From assembly GCF_044324875.1 (NCBI RefSeq), contig NZ_CP172185.1: a stretch of 64,000 bases of DNA; one strand, 5' to 3'. Position numbers and translations under genes: made by a program. The DNA comes from Escherichia coli (GTDB taxonomy: Bacteria; Pseudomonadota; Gammaproteobacteria; Enterobacterales; Enterobacteriaceae). A model generated the notes under the pieces. That model saw nothing but the letters and a program-made list of their open reading frames with translations, had not been told where the DNA came from and did no database searches. This document shows, one piece after another, positions 2,719 through 37,983 of the stretch (position 1 is its first letter; every line of letters starts with the position of its first letter).

Positions 2719-4032
<1,314 letters not shown>

Positions 4033-4056
4033 GTCTGACTTTATCTGATTAAAAAA

Positions 4057-4082
4057 TGCCAGCCTTCGGGCTGGCATTTTTT
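4057..4082. terminator. Bidirectional rho-independent terminator between convergent eno and TPM gene
   Basis: TGCCAGCC-TTCG-GGCTGGCA hairpin flanked by A6 upstream and T6 downstream. Confidence 0.75.
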
Positions 4083-4091
4083 ATGGTTGAG

Positions 4092-4985
4092 TTACCAGCG
4101 ACCGGACGCGCCGCCACCGCCAGAAGAACCGCCCCCGCCGCTAAATCCGCCGCCACTTGAGCCGCCACCGGAAGAGGATGAAGAAGAACCTTTTCTTGAA
4201 GCTCTTTCTTTACTGAGTTTTTTGTATTTGGCGCGTAGCTTTTTATTAACGATAAGCCAAAAAATAACCAGTGGTACGATAGCAAAAGGCGTGAGCATAC
4301 CGCAGGCAACGATTAAATTCGTCCATGGTCCTGGCTCGGCAACATAGAGGAATACCATCCCATAAATTCCGCCAGTCAGTGCTATCCAGGGTAAATTCGA
4401 CGGATCGGTAAAAACAATAAAATATGAAAGTACCGCCAGCAATATAATTACAGCAAGCGATAATGGAATAGGGGGATTGATACTGTAATAATCCCCCCTG
4501 TCTTCCGGTAATTCACCATTCAACAGAAGCGCTCCGATATTTTCGCTTGCCAGTGTTAACCCACCCATCAAGTCATCACTTTTGAAGGCTGGGATTAATA
4601 TATTACGGATAATCTTCGCTGCTTGCAGATCGGTAACCACCCCTTCCAGCCCGTAGCCCACTTCTATACGGACAGCATGATCTTCCCAGGCAACCAGCAG
4701 TAAAATACCATCGTTTCGCTGCTTATCTCCCAGTTTCCAGCTATCAAAAACGCGTGTTGCATATTGTTCAATGGTATCGTCTCCGGTGGATGGCACTATT
4801 AATACGGCGACCTGGGCCCGTGTTTTTTGTGTGATATCCTGCAGCTGTTGTGTCAGTGATTGTTGTTCAGACGTGCTTAACGTACCAGTAATATCGGTCA
4901 CCTGTTGGCGCAGCTCCGGCACAGCAATTTGCTGGGCAAGCCCAGGAAGGCACCATAAAGTAAGTAGAAAAAAGATTAAGCGCAT
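4092..4985 (-). CDS. TPM-domain membrane protein (YgcG-like), paralog A
   Basis: 297 aa; signal peptide, TPM-type domain (VAVLIVPSTGDDTIEQYATRVFDSWKLGDK, ILLLVAWEDH), TM helices, Gly/Ser-rich C-terminal tail ending GGGGASGRW. Confidence 0.85.
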   Translation of the reverse strand: MRLIFFLLTLWCLPGLAQQIAVPELRQQVTDITGTLSTSEQQSLTQQLQDITQKTRAQVAVLIVPSTGDDTIEQYATRVFDSWKLGDKQRNDGILLLVAWEDHAVRIEVGYGLEGVVTDLQAAKIIRNILIPAFKSDDLMGGLTLASENIGALLLNGELPEDRGDYYSINPPIPLSLAVIILLAVLSYFIVFTDPSNLPWIALTGGIYGMVFLYVAEPGPWTNLIVACGMLTPFAIVPLVIFWLIVNKKLRAKYKKLSKERASRKGSSSSSSGGGSSGGGFSGGGGSSGGGGASGRW

Positions 4986-4990
4986 AATGA

Positions 4991-6139
4991 TTACCAGCGT
5001 CCGGATGAACCGCCGCCTCCTGAAGAACCACCACCACCGCGGAAAGAATTTCTCGACGAAGAGCGAGAATGAGCATTACGATTCCCCGTTTTCCTGTTGC
5101 TTTTTTCTCCTGACCCCAGTTTAAGATTGCCAGTAAATTTGGCCACAATGATCAGCAGAACTATGCCAGCAATGGTTATTGGGCCGATAAAATGATCAAT
5201 TAGCCCAATAATTGTTGAGATGAATGCAATATCTTTATTACTGGCGAACACCAGGCACCATCCCACAATAATTATCAGCATCACGACAAACAATGAATTT
5301 CGTCCTGATTCACGAACCTGCGGAGTCTTCTTTTGTTTTTTCACTTTAGTGTTTTTATTTTTGGGGGCCAGCATCATAGGAAATGCGCGGCACATATTAA
5401 AAACTACCGCGAGACGCTGCCAGCAGGTTGTTGCTAACAATAAACTAAAACAAACGACCGATACCCGCCGAATGATGACATCGTCCTGAAAGGAGAAAAA
5501 CCAGACCATAGGGGTAATCATCGATATCATCCATATGCCACGCCCTGGGCGGCTGGCAAATCGCCAGAGGACAACGATGGCAACGATCATCAGCAGTGTC
5601 CAGGCAAGACAAGGCAGCGAACGTTGCGGATTAGCAAACAGATGATTGGCTAAAGCATCCAAAGGGCTAAGGTTCGCTTTGATATGGGTAAACTGTGCGA
5701 TGCTTTCAATTCCGCCCGTTAATCCAGCAAAGAGATTGTTTTTTTCGAATTCTGGCTGCATATGGTAACGAACAATTTGCGCAGCTTGTTCCGGCGGCAA
5801 CATCTGTTCCAGTCCATGTCCAATCTTCATTGACGCCAGCCCTTCCGGCCATACGACGAGAATTAAGATACCTTCGCCATATCGCTTCTCTCCAACGGGT
5901 TTCCAGTGATATACCCCGTATCTCTGCGAGGCTGCAAGTTTAATGTTTTTGCCCCCTGTGGTCGGCGTGACCAACACGGCCACCTGGAAGTGGTTTTGCT
6001 GCACGAGAGTCTGTAATTGTTGAGTTAAAGCAGTTTGTTCTTCTGTCGTTAATGTCCCGGTTAAGTCAGTTACTGAAGGCAATTGTTCAGCGAATACCTG
6101 AAAACCGCATAGCATCAGAAGTAAGAGAAAAATACGCAT
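4991..6139 (-). CDS. TPM-domain membrane protein, paralog B with extra internal hydrophobic insertion
   Basis: 382 aa; signal peptide, divergent TPM domain, additional TM segments, C-terminal tail ending GGGGSSGRW. Confidence 0.8.
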   Translation of the reverse strand: MRIFLLLLMLCGFQVFAEQLPSVTDLTGTLTTEEQTALTQQLQTLVQQNHFQVAVLVTPTTGGKNIKLAASQRYGVYHWKPVGEKRYGEGILILVVWPEGLASMKIGHGLEQMLPPEQAAQIVRYHMQPEFEKNNLFAGLTGGIESIAQFTHIKANLSPLDALANHLFANPQRSLPCLAWTLLMIVAIVVLWRFASRPGRGIWMISMITPMVWFFSFQDDVIIRRVSVVCFSLLLATTCWQRLAVVFNMCRAFPMMLAPKNKNTKVKKQKKTPQVRESGRNSLFVVMLIIIVGWCLVFASNKDIAFISTIIGLIDHFIGPITIAGIVLLIIVAKFTGNLKLGSGEKSNRKTGNRNAHSRSSSRNSFRGGGGSSGGGGSSGRW

Positions 6140-6153
6140 ATCAATTCCTTTTG

Positions 6154-7047
6154 TTACCAGCGCCCGGAAGCGCCACCGCCACCAGATGAACCGCCACCAC
6201 CGCTGAAATTGTCATTGTTGAATGAAGAGGATGACGATGATGAATAGTGGGAGGAAGAATTGCTTCTTGTATGGCGTGATGGCTGGTTGGCATCACGCAT
6301 CGAATCCCGAACCTTTTTGCCGAAGGGGGTAAAAGCGATGGCGACAGCCAGGAACGGTGTGGCGAAGCAGAGTAATGTTGCGAGTACTCCCCAGCTTCCG
6401 CTGAAGCCTGCTATAGGTAAAACAAAGGCCAGTACAATAGCTGCGAAGCAAATTACTCCCAGCGTTTTGATATATCCTCTGGCAGAAATAAACGTCAGTA
6501 CTATCGCCCAGACTAACAAAGCCCACCAACCGCTAAAAGGCAAAGGGTGATCGGTCGGTGTTATCGTTGCTAAATTATTCCCCGTCAGACGACTTTCAAT
6601 ATCGCTGATTCCCTTTTGCAAACCACCAGCCAGGTCCCCTTTTTTAAATGCCGGAATAATACTGTTGCGAATAATTTTCCCGGACTGTGCATCCGTAATA
6701 ATACCTTCCAGTCCGTAACCGATTTCAATACGCACGGTATGATCCTGCCAGGCGACTAACAGTAGAACGCCATCATCGTGGTCTTTATCACCCGGTTTCC
6801 AGCTATCGAATACCCGCGTTGCGTACTGCTCGATGGTTTCATCGCCTGTTGTTTCAACCACTAACACGACCAACTGTGCGTTGTTTTTTTGCGTCAGGGC
6901 TTTAATCTGGTTGGTCAGGGTGTTTACTTCACTGTTTGTCAATGTGCCGGTTAAGTCATTCACATACCTGGGTGATTCAGGTACTGGAATTTGTGTGGCA
7001 AACACAGATGAACAGAAGAAAGCCATAAGGAAGATAAAATTTCGCAT
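6154..7047 (-). CDS. TPM-domain membrane protein, paralog C
   Basis: ORF 6154..7077; start moved to internal ATG at 7047 (MRNFIFLMAFF signal peptide, GGGGAAG 4 nt upstream); tail ends GGGGASGRW. Confidence 0.8.
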   Translation of the reverse strand: MRNFIFLMAFFCSSVFATQIPVPESPRYVNDLTGTLTNSEVNTLTNQIKALTQKNNAQLVVLVVETTGDETIEQYATRVFDSWKPGDKDHDDGVLLLVAWQDHTVRIEIGYGLEGIITDAQSGKIIRNSIIPAFKKGDLAGGLQKGISDIESRLTGNNLATITPTDHPLPFSGWWALLVWAIVLTFISARGYIKTLGVICFAAIVLAFVLPIAGFSGSWGVLATLLCFATPFLAVAIAFTPFGKKVRDSMRDANQPSRHTRSNSSSHYSSSSSSSFNNDNFSGGGGSSGGGGASGRW

Positions 7048-7060
7048 ATAACTTCCCCGC

Positions 7061-7663
7061 TTAATGCGCATTAGCATTCTGGCTAAAATCTATTATTGGT
7101 GCTTTACTCACAGCTGCGACGTCATCCGGCAAATAATTTTTCTTCGGTGTGTAATCCATGACCTTTGCGGTTAATACAGCGGGGAATTTGCGGATAGTGA
7201 CATTATATTGTTCAATGGCTTTAATATATCTTCCTCGCGCAACGGCAATTCTATTTTCACTTCCTTCGAGCTGTACCATTAAATTTTGATAGAGTTCCTG
7301 AGCTTTTAAATCAGGGTAACGTTCACTAATTATCGTTAACTGACCGAGAGTGCGAGACACCTGCGCCTGGGCTTGTTGCCAGGCTTGTAATTTTTGCGCA
7401 TCTCCCGGAGCTTGCTGAAGATCGCTACTGGCGCGATTAGCCTGGCTACGTGCCAATGTTACGGCTTCCAGTACCTCTTGTTCATGGCTGGAATAACCTT
7501 TAATACTGGCGACAAGATTAGGAATAAGATCGGCGCGACGTTGATATTGATTCAATACCTCAGACCAGGAGGCGTTAACCTGCTCATCATAGGTTTGAAT
7601 ATCGTTATATCCACAGCCTGATAAATTGGCAATAAATATAATTACGATGAATATCCTGAGCAT
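7061..7663 (-). CDS. LemA-family lipoprotein
   Basis: 200 aa; lipobox LSGC near N-terminus; LemA-like coiled region; first gene of a co-directional lemA-TPM-TPM-TPM run. Confidence 0.8.
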   Translation of the reverse strand: MLRIFIVIIFIANLSGCGYNDIQTYDEQVNASWSEVLNQYQRRADLIPNLVASIKGYSSHEQEVLEAVTLARSQANRASSDLQQAPGDAQKLQAWQQAQAQVSRTLGQLTIISERYPDLKAQELYQNLMVQLEGSENRIAVARGRYIKAIEQYNVTIRKFPAVLTAKVMDYTPKKNYLPDDVAAVSKAPIIDFSQNANAH

Positions 7664-7835
7664 GTCTATGTCCCTTTTAATTAATTCCTTAAAACATAAT
7701 ACGCCGCTTCATTTTATTCTTTATGATCTCATCCACTTTTTGCCTTAAACCTGCCTGTAACAGAATGTTAATAAGACATGATTGTTGTGGCAGGATCTGC
7801 AATAATTAACAATTATCCACTTCACAGAGAATGCT

Positions 7836-8507
7836 ATGCAGTACCCGATTAACGAGATGTTCCAGACCCTGCAAGGTGAGGGTTACTTTACCGGCGTCCC
7901 CGCCATTTTTATTCGTTTACAGGGATGCCCGGTTGGCTGTGCCTGGTGCGACACCAAACACACCTGGGAAAAGCTTGAGGATCGGGAAGTCTCCCTTTTC
8001 AGCATTCTGGCGAAGACCAAAGAGAGTGATAAGTGGGGGGCGGCGAGCAGTGAAGACTTGCTGGCTGTCATTGGTCGCCAGGGATACACCGCGCGGCATG
8101 TGGTGATTACGGGTGGTGAGCCTTGCATTCATGATTTGCTGCCACTGACTGACCTGCTCGAAAAGAACGGTTTTAGCTGCCAGATCGAAACCAGTGGTAC
8201 TCATGAGGTACGCTGCACACCGAATACCTGGGTTACCGTATCGCCAAAGCTGAACATGCGCGGCGGCTATGAAGTGTTGTCACAGGCACTGGAGCGAGCC
8301 AACGAAATCAAGCATCCAGTGGGACGCGTACGTGATATTGAAGCACTGGATGAACTACTGGCAACACTGACCGATGATAAACCGCGAGTCATTGCACTGC
8401 AGCCGATTAGCCAAAAGGATGATGCTACTCGTTTATGTATCGATACGTGCATTGCGCGCAACTGGCGTTTGTCGATGCAAACGCATAAATATTTAAATAT
8501 TGCCTGA
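7836..8507 (+). CDS. queE: 7-carboxy-7-deazaguanine synthase (radical SAM)
   Basis: 223 aa; radical-SAM Cys motif CPVGCAWCDT; position next to CRISPR array as in E. coli ygcF. Confidence 0.92.
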   Translation: MQYPINEMFQTLQGEGYFTGVPAIFIRLQGCPVGCAWCDTKHTWEKLEDREVSLFSILAKTKESDKWGAASSEDLLAVIGRQGYTARHVVITGGEPCIHDLLPLTDLLEKNGFSCQIETSGTHEVRCTPNTWVTVSPKLNMRGGYEVLSQALERANEIKHPVGRVRDIEALDELLATLTDDKPRVIALQPISQKDDATRLCIDTCIARNWRLSMQTHKYLNIA

Positions 8508-8689
8508 TTAAACATTTATAAGCGTTATAAATGGGTGGAACCTGTAAAGACTTCTACTCATTTATATTCTTTGTCGCCTCTGAAAAACCTCCATTTTGCC
8601 CATCCTGAACTAATCATTATCATTCTCTACAAATTTTATGGCGTTAATTTTTCGTTGGAGTGAAAATTATTGCGGTGAAATTTGGTAGA

Positions 8690-8845
8690 TTTTAGTTTGA
8701 ATAGAGTTATTTCAAATATTTATCTTTTTAATCAATGGATTAAATGCTCTTTAACATAATGGATGTGTTGTTTGTGTGATACTGTAAAGTTGGTAGATTG
8801 TGACTGGCTTAAAAAATCATTAATTAATAATAGGTTATGTTTAGA
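8690..8845 (+). promoter_or_regulatory. CRISPR leader (AT-rich) for array at 8846
   Basis: AT-rich tract directly 5' of first repeat; contains motif AGTTGGTAGATTGT 44 bp upstream of repeat 1, also present at the same spacing in the second leader (37409..37422). Confidence 0.65.
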
Positions 8846-9118
8846 GAGTTCCCCGCGCCAGCGGGGATAAACCGCTTCATCTGTCGGGCTAACTGGACAA
8901 AGAAACGAGTTCCCCGCGCCAGCGGGGATAAACCGTCGGTTTGACATCAAAGAAGCCATCAATCAGGGAGTTCCCCGCGCCAGCGGGGATAAACCGGTCT
9001 GGCCATAGGAACAAAGAAATTTGTCTTTGAGTTCCCCACGTCAGCGGGGATAAACCGGACACAGAGCGCCGCTATAGCGCCTATGCCAAGAGTTCCCCGC
9101 GCCAGCGGGGATAAACCA
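8846..9118 (+). CRISPR. Type I-E CRISPR array, 5 repeats / 4 spacers (29-bp repeat GAGTTCCCCGCGCCAGCGGGGATAAACCG, 32-bp spacers)
   Basis: Repeats start at 8846, 8907, 8968, 9029, 9090 (61-bp period); repeat 4 has two substitutions, repeat 5 ends A instead of G. Confidence 0.97.
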
Positions 9119-9571
9119 CCATATAACCCGTTATCTCTTTCTCAAGTTTTTATATTAGCAGTACTTGTAATAAGCAACATATCCACGTAACACCTCATGT
9201 TCAAAATAGTTCTCCATGCCAGAGAAGTTCACAATTATCGATACAAAAAATTAAATTTAATCAAAGTGTTATTTGTATGATTCTTAAATCGTTAAGAAAT
9301 TTTAATATATTATTTTTTTAATATTAATTAATGCCTGTTAATTTTTTCTTTAGAATAACAGTGTATTTTTTAAGCTTATTATTCATTGATTAAGTAATAA
9401 ATCTGGAAATTTGTCTTTGTTTTGAGGCTAATGAGTGATTTTACATAATCGCCTCTATACGCTGTTGATGAATAGTTCTTATGAATAAAGATATCCAGTT
9501 CATACTTTAAGTGAAAATTGATAAAGTGCGATTCGTATTGTCTTTTATTCTAAAGACATCGAGTGTAGTTA

Positions 9572-9709
9572 ATATTCCTTGTAAAAACAGGGATAAACCG
9601 AACTAGTTAAAGTTTTTATTATGTTCCCTGCATCAGCGGGGATAAACCGGACTTGTTATCATTTTTTAAGTTGTCGAACTTATGTTCCCCGCGTCAGCGG
9701 GGATAACCA
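9572..9709 (+). CRISPR. Degenerate CRISPR remnant (2 recognisable repeats at 9621 and 9682 with one 32-bp spacer, plus a partial repeat ending 9600)
   Basis: ATGTTCCCTGCATCAGCGGGGATAAACCG and ATGTTCCCCGCGTCAGCGGGGATAACC read directly; no convincing leader. Confidence 0.65.
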
Positions 9710-9755
9710 TTCAGGTATGTTCAGGCCGGGCAGTTTCCCGCCCGGTCTTCCTCAC

Positions 9756-11234
9756 TTACGCATTCGACCAGCTCTGGATCGAATCTTCATTCCCCAGCTC
9801 ACCATGCATCACTTCATACGATTTTTTCAGGATCACATCAGTGTGTTTGGTTAGGTCTTTGAAAATGCCTTTATTCATCGCGTTGTAGCGTTTGGCGTTG
9901 CTCTCAACAGGCATAAAGATATCTTTCACGCGAACCATTTTGTCGACAGCCGTTGCGTAATCCGGGTATAGCCCCAGACCTACCGCCGTATTAATCGCTG
10001 CCCCCAGGCTTGCACAACCATTAATGGCGTTACGGCGTGCCGGAAGGTTGAACACGTCGGCAAAAATCTGCATAAACAGATCGCTGTTCGAACCGCCGCC
10101 AGTAATGATCACATGCTTTGCAAAGTGATTCATTTCATTACACATATTGTCGTAATTGTTCTTCAGCGTCAGCGCCACGCTTTCCAGTATCGAACGATAT
10201 ATCCATGCGTAATCCATGCTGGAATCAAAGCCAATCATAATCCCGCGTTTGTACGGTTCCCACGGATTGGTCAGCCAGTCCAGCACCGTCATCAGACCAT
10301 TACAGCCTGGCGGCACACAAGAAGCTTTTTTGTTGAGTAAATCTTCCGGTGAAAGATCCTGCGCCCTGGCATCCTGAATTAACGACTCGCCTAGCATGTC
10401 GCGCAGCCAGCTCACCGTCCACATGCCTTTGCGAATACCGTAACCTTCATACAGCAAGGTTTGCGGAATAGAAGACATAATCGGCCAGTACGCTACCGGA
10501 TCTTTCGGCAGTACTTTGCCGTTCATCATCAACGCGATGTAAGTGCCAAGAGAAATTACCGCAGTTTCATCATCCAGTAACCCGGCTCCCAGTGCTTCTA
10601 CCGGTTTATCACTGGTGGTACAAACAACCGGCAGCCCAGCCGGGAAATGTGTCGCCAGCGCGGCTTGAGGAGTGATATGCCCAAGAACAGTGCCCGGCAT
10701 TTGCACATCAAACAGCATATGACGGGGGATATTAAACTTCTCCATGACTGCGGCATCTTCACTCCATGCCCAGGTCTTATAATCCACCGGCCACTGACCA
10801 AAATAGTTGGCGATATTGTCTTTAAACTCGCCGGTTAAGCGATGCGTCAGATAACCCGAAAAAGAGGTGACATATGCCACGTCAGGATTCGTATGTTCGT
10901 AAGGGCGTGTAACGCGTGCATCCTGCCAGCTAATCAACGGCGCAGCTGGCGTGCCATCGGCTTTCAATAACGCACGGCAGCAACGGATGGATCCCAGACC
11001 AATACCGACAATATCTTCTTTATTTCCGGCAAACTGACTCATCAAATCGTGACCGGCAAAGCATAATGATGCCCATAAATCGTCGTCAGGATGTTCTGCG
11101 GTATCGGCATCTGGCGTGTGCATCGGCTGCAATAAGCCTTTGCCTTCGCAAACCACATTACCTTCCAGATCGTACATCACCACTTTTGTGCTCTGACTTC
11201 CACCATCAATCCCTATGATGTATTTTTTCGACAT
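9756..11234 (-). CDS. ygcE: FGGY-family carbohydrate kinase
   Basis: 492 aa; N-terminal IGIDGGSQSTK typical of FGGY kinases. Confidence 0.88.
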   Translation of the reverse strand: MSKKYIIGIDGGSQSTKVVMYDLEGNVVCEGKGLLQPMHTPDADTAEHPDDDLWASLCFAGHDLMSQFAGNKEDIVGIGLGSIRCCRALLKADGTPAAPLISWQDARVTRPYEHTNPDVAYVTSFSGYLTHRLTGEFKDNIANYFGQWPVDYKTWAWSEDAAVMEKFNIPRHMLFDVQMPGTVLGHITPQAALATHFPAGLPVVCTTSDKPVEALGAGLLDDETAVISLGTYIALMMNGKVLPKDPVAYWPIMSSIPQTLLYEGYGIRKGMWTVSWLRDMLGESLIQDARAQDLSPEDLLNKKASCVPPGCNGLMTVLDWLTNPWEPYKRGIMIGFDSSMDYAWIYRSILESVALTLKNNYDNMCNEMNHFAKHVIITGGGSNSDLFMQIFADVFNLPARRNAINGCASLGAAINTAVGLGLYPDYATAVDKMVRVKDIFMPVESNAKRYNAMNKGIFKDLTKHTDVILKKSYEVMHGELGNEDSIQSWSNA

Positions 11235-11260
11235 GATTTTTCTCCTGTAATTTTCTGGAC

Positions 11261-12538
11261 TTACTTGCTGCTAGCCATAGCAGGGGCGCTATCAGCAGTA
11301 CGAATTTTTTGGAACAGCAAAAAGGTAAAGACGATCACCATGGCAAGCGCCGCCATGCCCATCAGCCACATATTGCGGTAGGCTTCTGCAGCGGGCAGGG
11401 TGTCTTGCCAGTAGCCGATAATCGGGTAAACGAAGACATCCGGCAGGAATCCAATCACCGAACAAATACCTACCGTGGTGCCCATAATGTAAGACGGTGT
11501 TCTCGCTTCGCCAGGGCAGGCCCAGTACAGCCCGCGTGAGGCGTAACAGGTGAATCCCAGCAGTAAAATCAGGCCAATCCCCATCGCGACCGATTGCGGG
11601 TTAGAGTTCGTGACGAGCAGGGCAGTTAACGCCAGCAAGCCGAGTACGGAAAGGATTTGGATCACGCGGGTAGGGGATTTCACTTTGCTGTAGGTGGTGA
11701 TAATGCCACCAAGTGGGCCGCACAGTGCGCGGAAGATTTTGTTGATCACAATCCCCATGTAGCTCGCCGCCACCAGCGACATGCCGTACATTTCGGTCAG
11801 ATAGTTGGTGGAGTAACTCAGAATGGCGTAGATGGTGAAGACACCAAAAATCACCATGCTGCAATACCAGGTGGTGCTGATGCGCAAAACAGCCAGGATG
11901 TCGCTAAGCTGGAATGACTGTTTTTCTTCGTTATTGGTATTGCACAGGTTGTTGTTATCGCTAACAAAAAACCAACACAAAATGCCCAGCAGAATGTAAA
12001 CCACACTATAGATAATAATGACCGTTTTCAGGCTGGCGCTGTCATCCGGTGCAAAGCGAGAAAAGACCCACATGGTAAACACCGCCAGCGACATTACACC
12101 GACGCCGCGCAGCCCTTCCATCCAGCCCATAATTTTCCCTTGCTCGCTATGATCGCCCAGCAACGAGGCGGCTTTAATCGACACCGACCACAGCATTAAA
12201 ATAGTGGTTATCGCAAAGGCGACCTGAATACAGAGCATTACCCACAGCGGTGGATATGTTGCCATTAACAGACCCAGTAATCCGGTAATGATCATCGCGG
12301 AAGTAATCATTTTGCGGTGTGAAAATTTATCGGCAATAACGCCGCTGGGGGCATAAAGAATAATAGCCGCAATACCAAAGGTACTCATTATTAAACCTAT
12401 CTCGGTATTGCTGAATCCCATAAATTTCGCCATGGGAATTTGATAAATATAACGTAAATAAGCCAGGTCGAAACTAACGCCGCCGCTAAAACTAATTATC
12501 GCGAGGGTTATCCAACGGCGATATGAGTTGTGTTGCAT
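11261..12538 (-). CDS. yqcE: MFS transporter
   Basis: 425 aa, about 12 predicted TM helices. Confidence 0.85.
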   Translation of the reverse strand: MQHNSYRRWITLAIISFSGGVSFDLAYLRYIYQIPMAKFMGFSNTEIGLIMSTFGIAAIILYAPSGVIADKFSHRKMITSAMIITGLLGLLMATYPPLWVMLCIQVAFAITTILMLWSVSIKAASLLGDHSEQGKIMGWMEGLRGVGVMSLAVFTMWVFSRFAPDDSASLKTVIIIYSVVYILLGILCWFFVSDNNNLCNTNNEEKQSFQLSDILAVLRISTTWYCSMVIFGVFTIYAILSYSTNYLTEMYGMSLVAASYMGIVINKIFRALCGPLGGIITTYSKVKSPTRVIQILSVLGLLALTALLVTNSNPQSVAMGIGLILLLGFTCYASRGLYWACPGEARTPSYIMGTTVGICSVIGFLPDVFVYPIIGYWQDTLPAAEAYRNMWLMGMAALAMVIVFTFLLFQKIRTADSAPAMASSK

Positions 12539-37466: not shown

Positions 37467-37983
37467 GTGTTCCCCGCGCCAGCGGGGATAAACCGCTTTT
37501 GTTTCTGATTTCTACGCCTGTGGGTAAGTGTTCCCCGCGCCAGCGGGGATAAACCGGAGCAACTACTCGCAGCACAACAGGCAGGTAGGTGTTCCCCGCG
37601 CCAGCGGGGATAAACCGTTTTCTCTAATTACAGTGATTTTTCAAAATCCGTGTTCCCCGCGCCAGCGGGGATAAACCGCGATTCAAAAATAAAATGACGA
37701 CGGAGGAGGCGTGTTCCCCGCGCCAGCGGGGATAAACCGCCGTCGAAGTGACCATGCTCTTTCATTGTGATGTGTTCCCCGCGCCAGCGGGGATAAACCG
37801 AACACAGCGTAAAACCGTCGCAGCCATGCCGAGAGTTCCCCGCGCCAGTGGGGATAAACCGATTGGTCGGTTATGCATCCTGCTAACCAGATTGTGTTCC
37901 CCGCACCAGCGGGGATAAACCGTAATATTAGACTAATGTTTTTTTGTTGAGTTCGTGTTCCCCCGCCACTGCGGTAGAACTCC
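37467..37983 (+). CRISPR. Type I-E CRISPR array, 9 repeats / 8 spacers (repeat GTGTTCCCCGCGCCAGCGGGGATAAACCG; terminal repeat degenerate)
   Basis: Repeats start at 37467, 37528, 37589, 37650, 37711, 37772, 37833, 37894, 37955 (61-bp period); repeats 7 and 8 carry point changes; repeat 9 is GTGTTCCCCCGCCACTGCGGTAGAACTCC. Confidence 0.97.

Follow-up and report, generated by a model that had tools for sequence, protein, structure and literature searches.

Between eno and queE, Escherichia coli K-12 carries a single gene for a TPM-domain protein, ygcG, whereas the strain studied here has four genes in the same interval, and this raises the questions of which state is the older one and why three of the four proteins end in nearly the same Gly/Ser-rich peptide. 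We analysed a window of 64,000 nucleotides from contig NZ_CP172185.1 (assembly GCF_044324875.1; all positions are counted from its first letter), in which the interval encodes a LemA-family protein and three TPM proteins that we call TPM-A, TPM-B and TPM-C. The four genes are one operon, the Escherichia version of a widespread LemA-TPM gene module, and the block is an old, common and already annotated haplotype of this functionally uncharacterised module. The Gly/Ser ending in ...SGRW is a family hallmark of the long TPM proteins of the BA41/YgcG type and not a trait of the strain. Our best explanation of the whole, an ancestral LemA-TPM operon whose hallmark tail has a proposed docking or accessory role, is one towards which we lean slightly; its identity and evolutionary parts are well supported, and its mechanism is hypothetical.

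Composition of the operon and of the wider module

The initial annotation described four co-directional minus-strand genes for a LemA lipoprotein and TPM proteins of 297, 382 and 297 residues, and the open reading frames (ORFs) and the lipobox confirm this. The ORFs are closely packed in the order lemA-tpmA-tpmB-tpmC, with 13, 14 and 5 nucleotides between lemA and A, A and B, and B and C, respectively (Table 1); an upstream ATG that overlaps lemA would extend TPM-A to 307 residues, the 297-residue form being that of the RefSeq start. RefSeq names the products ‘LemA family protein’ and, three times, ‘TPM domain-containing / YgcG family protein’, and hidden Markov models (HMMs) of TPM and LemA that we built matched these four ORFs only in the window. 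The lemA DNA is 100% identical to RefSeq WP_000944219.1, ‘LemA family protein’, and the protein, of the PF04011 family, is 34-68% identical to the products of PF04011-labelled LemA genes at other loci. It matches PDB 2ETD, ‘lemA protein’, over residues 22-177 (E 6.9e-33), which places it with MamQ/LemA in the LemA four-helix-bundle family; its 93.8 bits fall below the cut-off of 250 for the MamQ equivalog (NCBIfam NF040966). In contrast to MamQ/LemA (2ETD), its predicted anchor is a lipid-modified Cys and not a transmembrane helix. The N-terminus, MLRIFIVIIFIANLSGCG, reads as a signal peptide with the lipobox L-S-G-C (LSG/C in ...ANLSG/CGYND) and Gly at +2, so that the N-terminal anchor is a lipoprotein signal, and LemA is predicted to be a lipoprotein that faces the periplasm.

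TPM-A is laid out as a signal peptide, a predicted periplasmic TPM domain, three hydrophobic helices, a basic juxtamembrane segment, a Ser-rich linker and the C-terminus FSGGGGSSGGGGASGRW, with which TPM-C also ends. TPM-B has the same plan with a bigger membrane block (about five helices and a Lys-rich loop) and the C-terminus FRGGGGSSGGGGSSGRW. Together they display the features of BA41/YgcG-type long TPM proteins, namely the signal peptide, the TPM domain, the hydrophobic block and the Gly-rich tail GGGG[AS]SGxW. TPM-B matches Pfam PF04536 at E 7.1e-20, TPM-A and TPM-C match the TPM HMM built here at E about 1e-82, and a PDB sequence search with TPM-C returned 7TBR (E 5.6e-22), 5ANP (BA41; E 4.4e-20) and also PG0361. 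The large hydrophobic insertion that had been noted in TPM-B is indeed present, as about 85 additional hydrophobic and basic residues relative to A and C. All homologues of the TPM-B membrane block are at least 66% identical to it and those with a name are from E. coli; a search for relatives of the insertion found only Escherichia-like fragments, and the Pfam match to DUF4271 (E 0.012) is not significant. The E. coli paralogues share 39-60% identity in their TPM domains and 21-29% in their membrane blocks, and since the latter values lie well below the former, they differ chiefly in the membrane part.

Close known relatives include the long and short TPM proteins of Bizionia argentinensis, BA41 (PDB 5ANP) and BA42 (PDB 4OA3/2MPB). 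TPM-C matches BA41 in sequence and in fold (Foldseek TM-score 0.91 and root-mean-square deviation 1.7 Å for its AlphaFold2 model on 5ANP), and it matches BA42 more weakly, as the short TPM class does. One Bacteroidota locus likewise has a long tailed TPM, a short TPM and LemA together; however, the BA41 and BA42 structures cover the TPM domains only, and the Escherichia set consists of three long proteins without a short partner gene. The same neighbourhood recurs widely. Five of five diverse tailed TPM representatives that we looked up adjoin a LemA gene, and a LemA alignment run against one genome per species gave 80 loci, 60 of them with at least 2 kb downstream. A tailed TPM gene follows lemA immediately in 50 of these 60 loci, an additional third gene for a short TPM is found in 41, and two or more tailed TPM genes are found in none. 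The short TPM has about 165 residues, a conserved NELPDxPVxL end and no hydrophobic segment (34 of 34). The usual module is lemA, a long membrane TPM and a short cytoplasmic TPM.

Like the canonical module of Proteobacteria, the Escherichia cluster has LemA directly upstream of a tailed membrane TPM, across the 13-nucleotide gap to TPM-A; it differs in its three tailed TPM proteins, its lipoprotein LemA and its lack of a short TPM, with no further match to the TPM HMM in the window and the operon ending at the eno terminator. A second cluster of lemA and three tailed TPM genes without a short TPM lies in GCA_000302695.1 (L005, 4310-8118), at an unrelated locus by pmbA, yjgA and cybC. There the TPM domains are 82-84% identical to each other and the membrane blocks 22-34%, which points either to a separate triplication event or to gene conversion confined to the 5' halves.

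Probable reduction of the locus in K-12 and its haplotypes in E. coli

The statement in the initial annotation that K-12 has a single ygcG here was correct: the K-12-type locus holds one ygcG (290 residues) and yqcG (46 residues), with no LemA gene. It shares its position and its control region with the four-gene locus, and it is 83% identical to the window over 213 nucleotides, which run from queE through the intergenic region and 33 nucleotides into lemA. The yqcG frame starts at an upstream ATG; in the window the same ATG is present and is then followed by a stop codon. From this start yqcG passes in frame through what was the lemA ribosome-binding site and signal peptide (IIFIFSVLVFNDNE versus IIFIANLSGCGYND; window 7603-7835 and L003 3944-4227), its codons 12-31 corresponding to the former signal peptide and the lipobox Cys now being Phe. 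Because the 3' half has no detectable similarity to lemA (best local score 10 against a shuffle mean of 8.7), only the 5' part of yqcG is a lemA relic. An apparent match of ‘DAAV’ in yqcG to the LemA C-terminus was set aside as chance. YqcG, the ‘cell envelope stress response protein’ of RefSeq, can thus be understood as left over from the leader and signal-peptide codons of lemA, a 46-codon ORF lying over both.

YgcG of K-12 (b2778) has the same plan as the window proteins and an identical 17-residue tail, and from residue 71 to 265 it is allelic to the third TPM gene of clusters of the CFT073 and A13 type, with 93-97% identity to these C2 alleles over residues 71-160 and 84-92% over residues 161-265. 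Over its first 70 residues it shares no more than 39-49% identity with any paralogue, which speaks against a simple recombinant of A and C. Judged by these alignments, K-12 ygcG is a mosaic survivor of a multi-gene cluster. Since yqcG keeps the 5' end of lemA, the K-12 state would be the derived one, and the four-gene state looks older, with yqcG and ygcG as its decayed and reduced remnant; what appears as an expansion in the window strain would really be a loss in K-12. E. albertii also has lemA and three TPM genes between queE and eno, and their TPM domains are 74-93% identical to those of A, B and C, respectively.

In a survey of 5426 complete E. coli genomes we found the whole interval at 80% coverage or more in 1102, TPM-B likewise in 1102, lemA in 1454, the C1-type body of the third gene in 782 and yqcG-type sequence in 3200. 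The four-gene genomes include O157:H7 and CFT073, and strain 042 matches the C1-type body at 100%. The third TPM gene is itself mosaic (window 4092-4985 compared with L093 1921-2793, L095 360-1232 and L003 3058-3930): its first ~70 residues are common to all four-gene strains and are followed by one of two unrelated bodies, C1 in the window strain and O157 and C2 in CFT073, A13 and E22. TPM-A is intact in the window strain, Ecol_316 and A13, and a pseudogene without the C-terminus is annotated in CFT073, E22 and ES6 (L093 4190-4861, L094 4184-4855 and L002 4235-4906). In O157:H7 strain 2149 the first TPM gene is annotated as a shorter coding sequence of 675 nucleotides (L092 2653-3327), and strain ES6 has lemA and a partial TPM-A only. 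The interval thus comprises at least four haplotypes of long standing; its TPM genes are mosaic, and TPM-A has often decayed to a pseudogene. Through this diversity E. coli offers a natural knock-out series for an uncharacterised module. In E22, an IS4 element separates the third TPM gene from eno.

The initial annotation had framed the block as an expansion, and some properties of the locus would suit a recent expansion of ygcG in one strain or lineage, or a mobile or defence island beside it. The G+C content of the four-gene block (42-50% over 4000-7750) lies below that of the flanks (51-54% in most of eno and in pyrG), E. coli strains are polymorphic at the locus and there are CRISPR arrays nearby. 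However, E. albertii and 20% of E. coli genomes have these four genes at this very site, so the block is not an expansion peculiar to the strain; the remnant of lemA in K-12 yqcG also speaks for loss, and no mobility genes are present. A defence island was dropped as an explanation when PADLOC gave a single weak match for the four proteins (PDC-M18B, E 0.0069), with no stretch passing alone. We regard recent expansion or an island as extremely improbable.

The control region that the lemA operon shares with yqcG allows a guess at regulation. Within it lies a PhoP-box-like direct repeat, TGTTACAGGCAGGTTTA, at 7746-7762 on the minus strand; K-12-type sequence has it unchanged, and in E. albertii 2 of its 17 positions are altered. 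In 64 kb the expected number of occurrences of the pattern is 0.16, and two are present. The yqcG/queE interval of K-12 is bound by PhoP-P in an electrophoretic mobility shift assay (PMC4974570), and sigma-S RNA polymerase has been mapped there (PMC4447067). With YqcG as a relic of lemA, the operon may be tied to this promoter region, and we propose that it would be expressed from an envelope-stress promoter, responsive to PhoP and sigma-S, that is shared with yqcG. A consensus scan for sigma-70 promoters in this analysis gave fewer promoter-like sites than shuffled sequence did.

The conserved ending of the long TPM proteins

TPM-A, TPM-B and TPM-C end in NFSGGGGSSGGGGASGRW, SFRGGGGSSGGGGSSGRW and GFSGGGGSSGGGGASGRW, respectively, which can be written together as [F]-[S/R]-GGGG-SS-GGGG-[A/S]-SGRW. 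The three tails do end in the GRW tripeptide that had first drawn attention, but they are alike over about 17 residues in all, and the conserved unit is a motif of 17-18 residues in which the residue at the R position varies. Between A and C the tail codons differ at 9 of 51 nucleotides without any change of amino acid, and over all paralogues at 9-12 of 51 nucleotides with 0-2 changes. As the A and C differences are all synonymous, the tails are not recent copies, and it is the peptide itself, and not the DNA, that is under selection.

An exhaustive, profile-free search with TPM-C returned 22,398 cluster representatives at E <= 1e-3. We pooled the best 150 of these with the TPM genes adjoining LemA in 80 genomes and took from the pooled sample the 191 tails that end in W. 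In 188 of the 191 the tail fits G-[F/W/Y/S]-[S/G/R]-GGGG-x-[F/S]-GGGG-[A/S]-S-G-x-W(COOH), with G in 175-191 at the eight core Gly positions, S in 188 at -4 and W in all 191 at -1; one to four residues beyond the W are found in only 4 sequences. At position -2, where the window proteins have the R of GRW, the residue is free to vary (S 74, R 61, G 24, D 17), so that GRW does not hold as a general terminus of these proteins, while W is constant among these W-ending homologues. The motif is kept across phyla, including Leptospira, Elusimicrobia and Bacteroidota, and K-12 YgcG has the same 17 residues as the window proteins, which bears out the suggestion that the C-terminus is a conserved functional signal and is conserved outside this strain. 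The stretch upstream of the motif varies in length and composition even among E. coli alleles, the O157 C allele having an extra GGGSGGG ahead of it. A PDB sequence search with the tail found artificial GS linkers only and no entry that contains the tail; in the literature we found no study of its function, and one paper notes a low-complexity segment following the TPM domain. The tail is among the more strongly conserved unexplained peptide motifs of bacterial membrane proteins.

Two further observations concern the tail. It consists of two GGGG-x-Φ units, and positions -11 and -2 often hold the same residue (D/D, R/R, S/S); their mutual information is 0.39 against a shuffle maximum of 0.31 in 183 non-identical long TPM tails, a value that shared ancestry could explain. 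In the E. albertii type strain the ORF equivalent to TPM-B (L012, 3844-4980) ends in ...GGGGASGR without the W and abuts the start of the next ORF at 4980.

In an AlphaFold2 model of TPM-C, from an alignment of 77 homologues, the TPM domain has a predicted local distance difference test (pLDDT) score of 96-98 and is followed by three helices (175-193, 198-215, 220-246), by a linker that is disordered (253-279, pLDDT < 50) and by a terminal β-strand at 291-296, residues 291-297 being at pLDDT ~95. The hydrophobic block has a mean of 79 residues across the family. Over the 20 residues that flank the membrane block, the 77 homologues have a net charge of -1.1 before it and +2.05 after it, and the latter is +7 in TPM-C and +4 in TPM-A. 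From the Sec signal and the positive-inside rule it follows that the TPM domain would be periplasmic and the tail cytoplasmic, and the helices predicted to hold the proteins in the inner membrane are odd in number: three for A and C, about five for B. The model probably shows the strand on the protein's own domain, with which a tail in the predicted cytoplasmic position could not pair in vivo. When the last 45 residues of a long TPM were fused to the neighbouring short TPM (25 paired sequences), a terminal strand was again predicted (E204-209), with pLDDT ~78 for the last seven residues (an estimate from block means) and < 50 for the linker. Both models weakly suggest a docking peptide that acts by β-strand addition, and the proposal of a docking signal in the initial annotation gains some support from the ordered strand formed by the last six residues of TPM-C.

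We therefore outline a mechanism as follows. The TPM proteins would be exported by a Sec signal peptide, with the TPM domain in the periplasm and the disordered Ser/Gly linker and invariant tail presented in the cytoplasm, where the tail may dock on a partner as a short peptide and contribute a β-strand to it. For the canonical module of three genes, the partner within reach would be the cytoplasmic short TPM. As Escherichia has no short TPM, its three tails would bind another cytoplasmic partner or each other, and they would join three paralogues whose main differences lie in the membrane blocks. Stated in full, this makes the invariant tail of the long TPM proteins, a family of some 22,000 cluster representatives, a cytoplasmic β-strand docking peptide that couples a periplasmic LemA/TPM unit to a cytoplasmic partner of TPM fold, which Escherichia would have replaced with three tailed paralogues of diverged membrane blocks; in this full form we hold it tentatively and consider it rather unlikely. 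If true, it would amount to a widespread and so far undescribed trans-membrane tether, and it gives the motif a testable docking-strand hypothesis.

Several points weigh against the proposal. The fusion run had only 25 paired sequences, lower confidence and no negative control, and any sheet with an open edge may be enough for AlphaFold2 to place such a strand on it. The partner of the strand is a deduction from models. In the full-length model, the only confident β-sheet belongs to the TPM domain of the protein itself, which lies in the periplasm and is out of reach under the predicted topology. Moreover, the Escherichia cluster is without a short TPM and tails persist at other loci without one (L009, L011 and L013), hence the short TPM is not a universal partner of the tail. 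The regulation is extrapolated from the K-12 remnant, the literature is divided on the activity of the TPM domain (weak phosphatase or ATPase, metal binding), and we found no experimental work on these four genes in the literature.

The same observations can be set against three other accounts of the tail. Were it periplasmic, it could bind in cis to the TPM domain of the same protein and act there as a lid or an autoinhibitory strand, as the high pLDDT of residues 291-297 and the TPM domain as the sole high-confidence β-sheet would have it, and many homologues have few charges near the membrane block and hence weak topology signals. However, three helices follow the exported domain, the segment after the membrane is basic in A, in C and in the family mean, the fusion run also has the tail docking on another TPM, which is cytoplasmic, and AlphaFold2 takes no account of the membrane; docking in cis strikes us as improbable. 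We give a similarly low weight to a degradation or processing signal, that is a C-degron for a cytoplasmic or membrane protease such as FtsH or ClpXP, or a substrate of a tail-specific protease if the tail is periplasmic, which would set TPM turnover. An aromatic residue that ends the chain behind a disordered linker is a usual feature of C-terminal recognition signals, and the invariably last W with the rarity of extensions beyond it would agree with this. On the other hand, seventeen conserved residues with two GGGG blocks exceed the needs of known C-degrons, AlphaFold2 predicts an ordered strand, and no protease gene is conserved among the sampled neighbourhoods. That the tail is a low-complexity spacer without specific function, its likeness maintained by gene conversion or by drift in composition, is highly improbable: Gly/Ser tracts are common as linkers and the segment ahead of the motif varies in length, as in the O157 C allele, but the paralogue tails differ at the nucleotide and hardly at the amino-acid level, and the position-specific conservation across phyla already contradicts this account.

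What the module might do can be approached through better studied systems, in which TPM proteins are accessory or assembly subunits of membrane complexes on the extracytoplasmic side. Psb32 and TLP18.3, which are assembly and repair factors of photosystem II (for Psb32, bioRxiv 10.1101/2025.05.08.652833), likewise have an extracytoplasmic TPM fold anchored by a C-terminal helix. However, the glycine-rich extension of its bacterial homologues is missing from Psb32 (bioRxiv 10.1101/2025.05.08.652833), and the Psb32 model (NCBIfam NF047379), with its cut-off of 160 bits, gives the window TPM proteins 35 and 33.6 bits. A Foldseek search with the TPM-C model also returned TPM-like subunits of the mycobacterial CIII2CIV2 supercomplex (8hcr_J, 8ovc_a/V). 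A phage shock protein survey proposed a chaperone-like role for TPM proteins, ATPase/ADPase activity is reported for BA41, and LemA-like bundles are discussed in the literature as membrane-associated scaffolds or remodelling elements. A further known system is that of YdjH of B. subtilis (pspA-ydjGHI operon), from which the present cluster differs: it has no PspA, band-7 or zinc-ribbon partner, and LemA is not part of that system. By analogy with Psb32, the CIII2CIV2 subunits and LemA-like bundles, the complex would most likely be an accessory or quality-control factor for inner-membrane complexes. Our hypothesis is that of a stress-induced accessory complex of the inner membrane and periplasm whose cytoplasmic tails may dock a partner.

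The C-termini of LemA (window 7061-7120; L013-L091) also have a short motif, [A/P]-P-x-[V/I]-[D/N]-F, ahead of a variable end rich in Pro, Ala and Gln; the motif might serve as another docking peptide, directed at the TPM domain in the periplasm.

Feature coordinates and surroundings of the operon

A single terminator of the form A6-hairpin-T6 serves both eno and the end of the operon; it is obvious by eye, although it was absent from the output of our consensus scan. No tandem DNA repeats were found in 4000-12000.

Table 1. Features of the eno-queE interval, in window coordinates.
Feature	Position	Strand	Remarks
eno	2734-4032	+	
Bidirectional hairpin terminator A6-TGCCAGCC-TTCG-GGCTGGCA-T6	4051-4082	.	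Between eno and TPM-C; direct reading
TPM-C	4092-4985	-	297 residues, allele type C1; AlphaFold2 model, Foldseek to 5ANP
Codons of the 17-residue terminal motif, TPM-C	4095-4145	-	~93% DNA identity to the 3' end of K-12 ygcG
TPM-B	4991-6139	-	382 residues; Pfam PF04536 E 7e-20, hydropathy
Codons of the 17-residue terminal motif, TPM-B	4994-5044	-	
TPM-A	6154-7047	-	297 residues; ORF, hydropathy, TPM HMM, RefSeq ‘TPM domain-containing protein’
Codons of the 17-residue terminal motif, TPM-A	6157-6207	-	
lemA	7061-7663	-	LemA-family lipoprotein, 200 residues; ORF, PDB 2ETD match, RefSeq name, lipobox
Divergent lemA/queE control region	7664-7835	-	84% identity to the K-12 yqcG/queE region
queE	7836-8507	+	

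Repeats of the type I-E CRISPR kind (GTTCCCCGCGCCAGCGGGGATAAACC) lie in three places of the window: five copies at 8848-9117, just 3' of queE, two degenerate copies at 9623-9709, before ygcE, and eight copies at 37469-37921.

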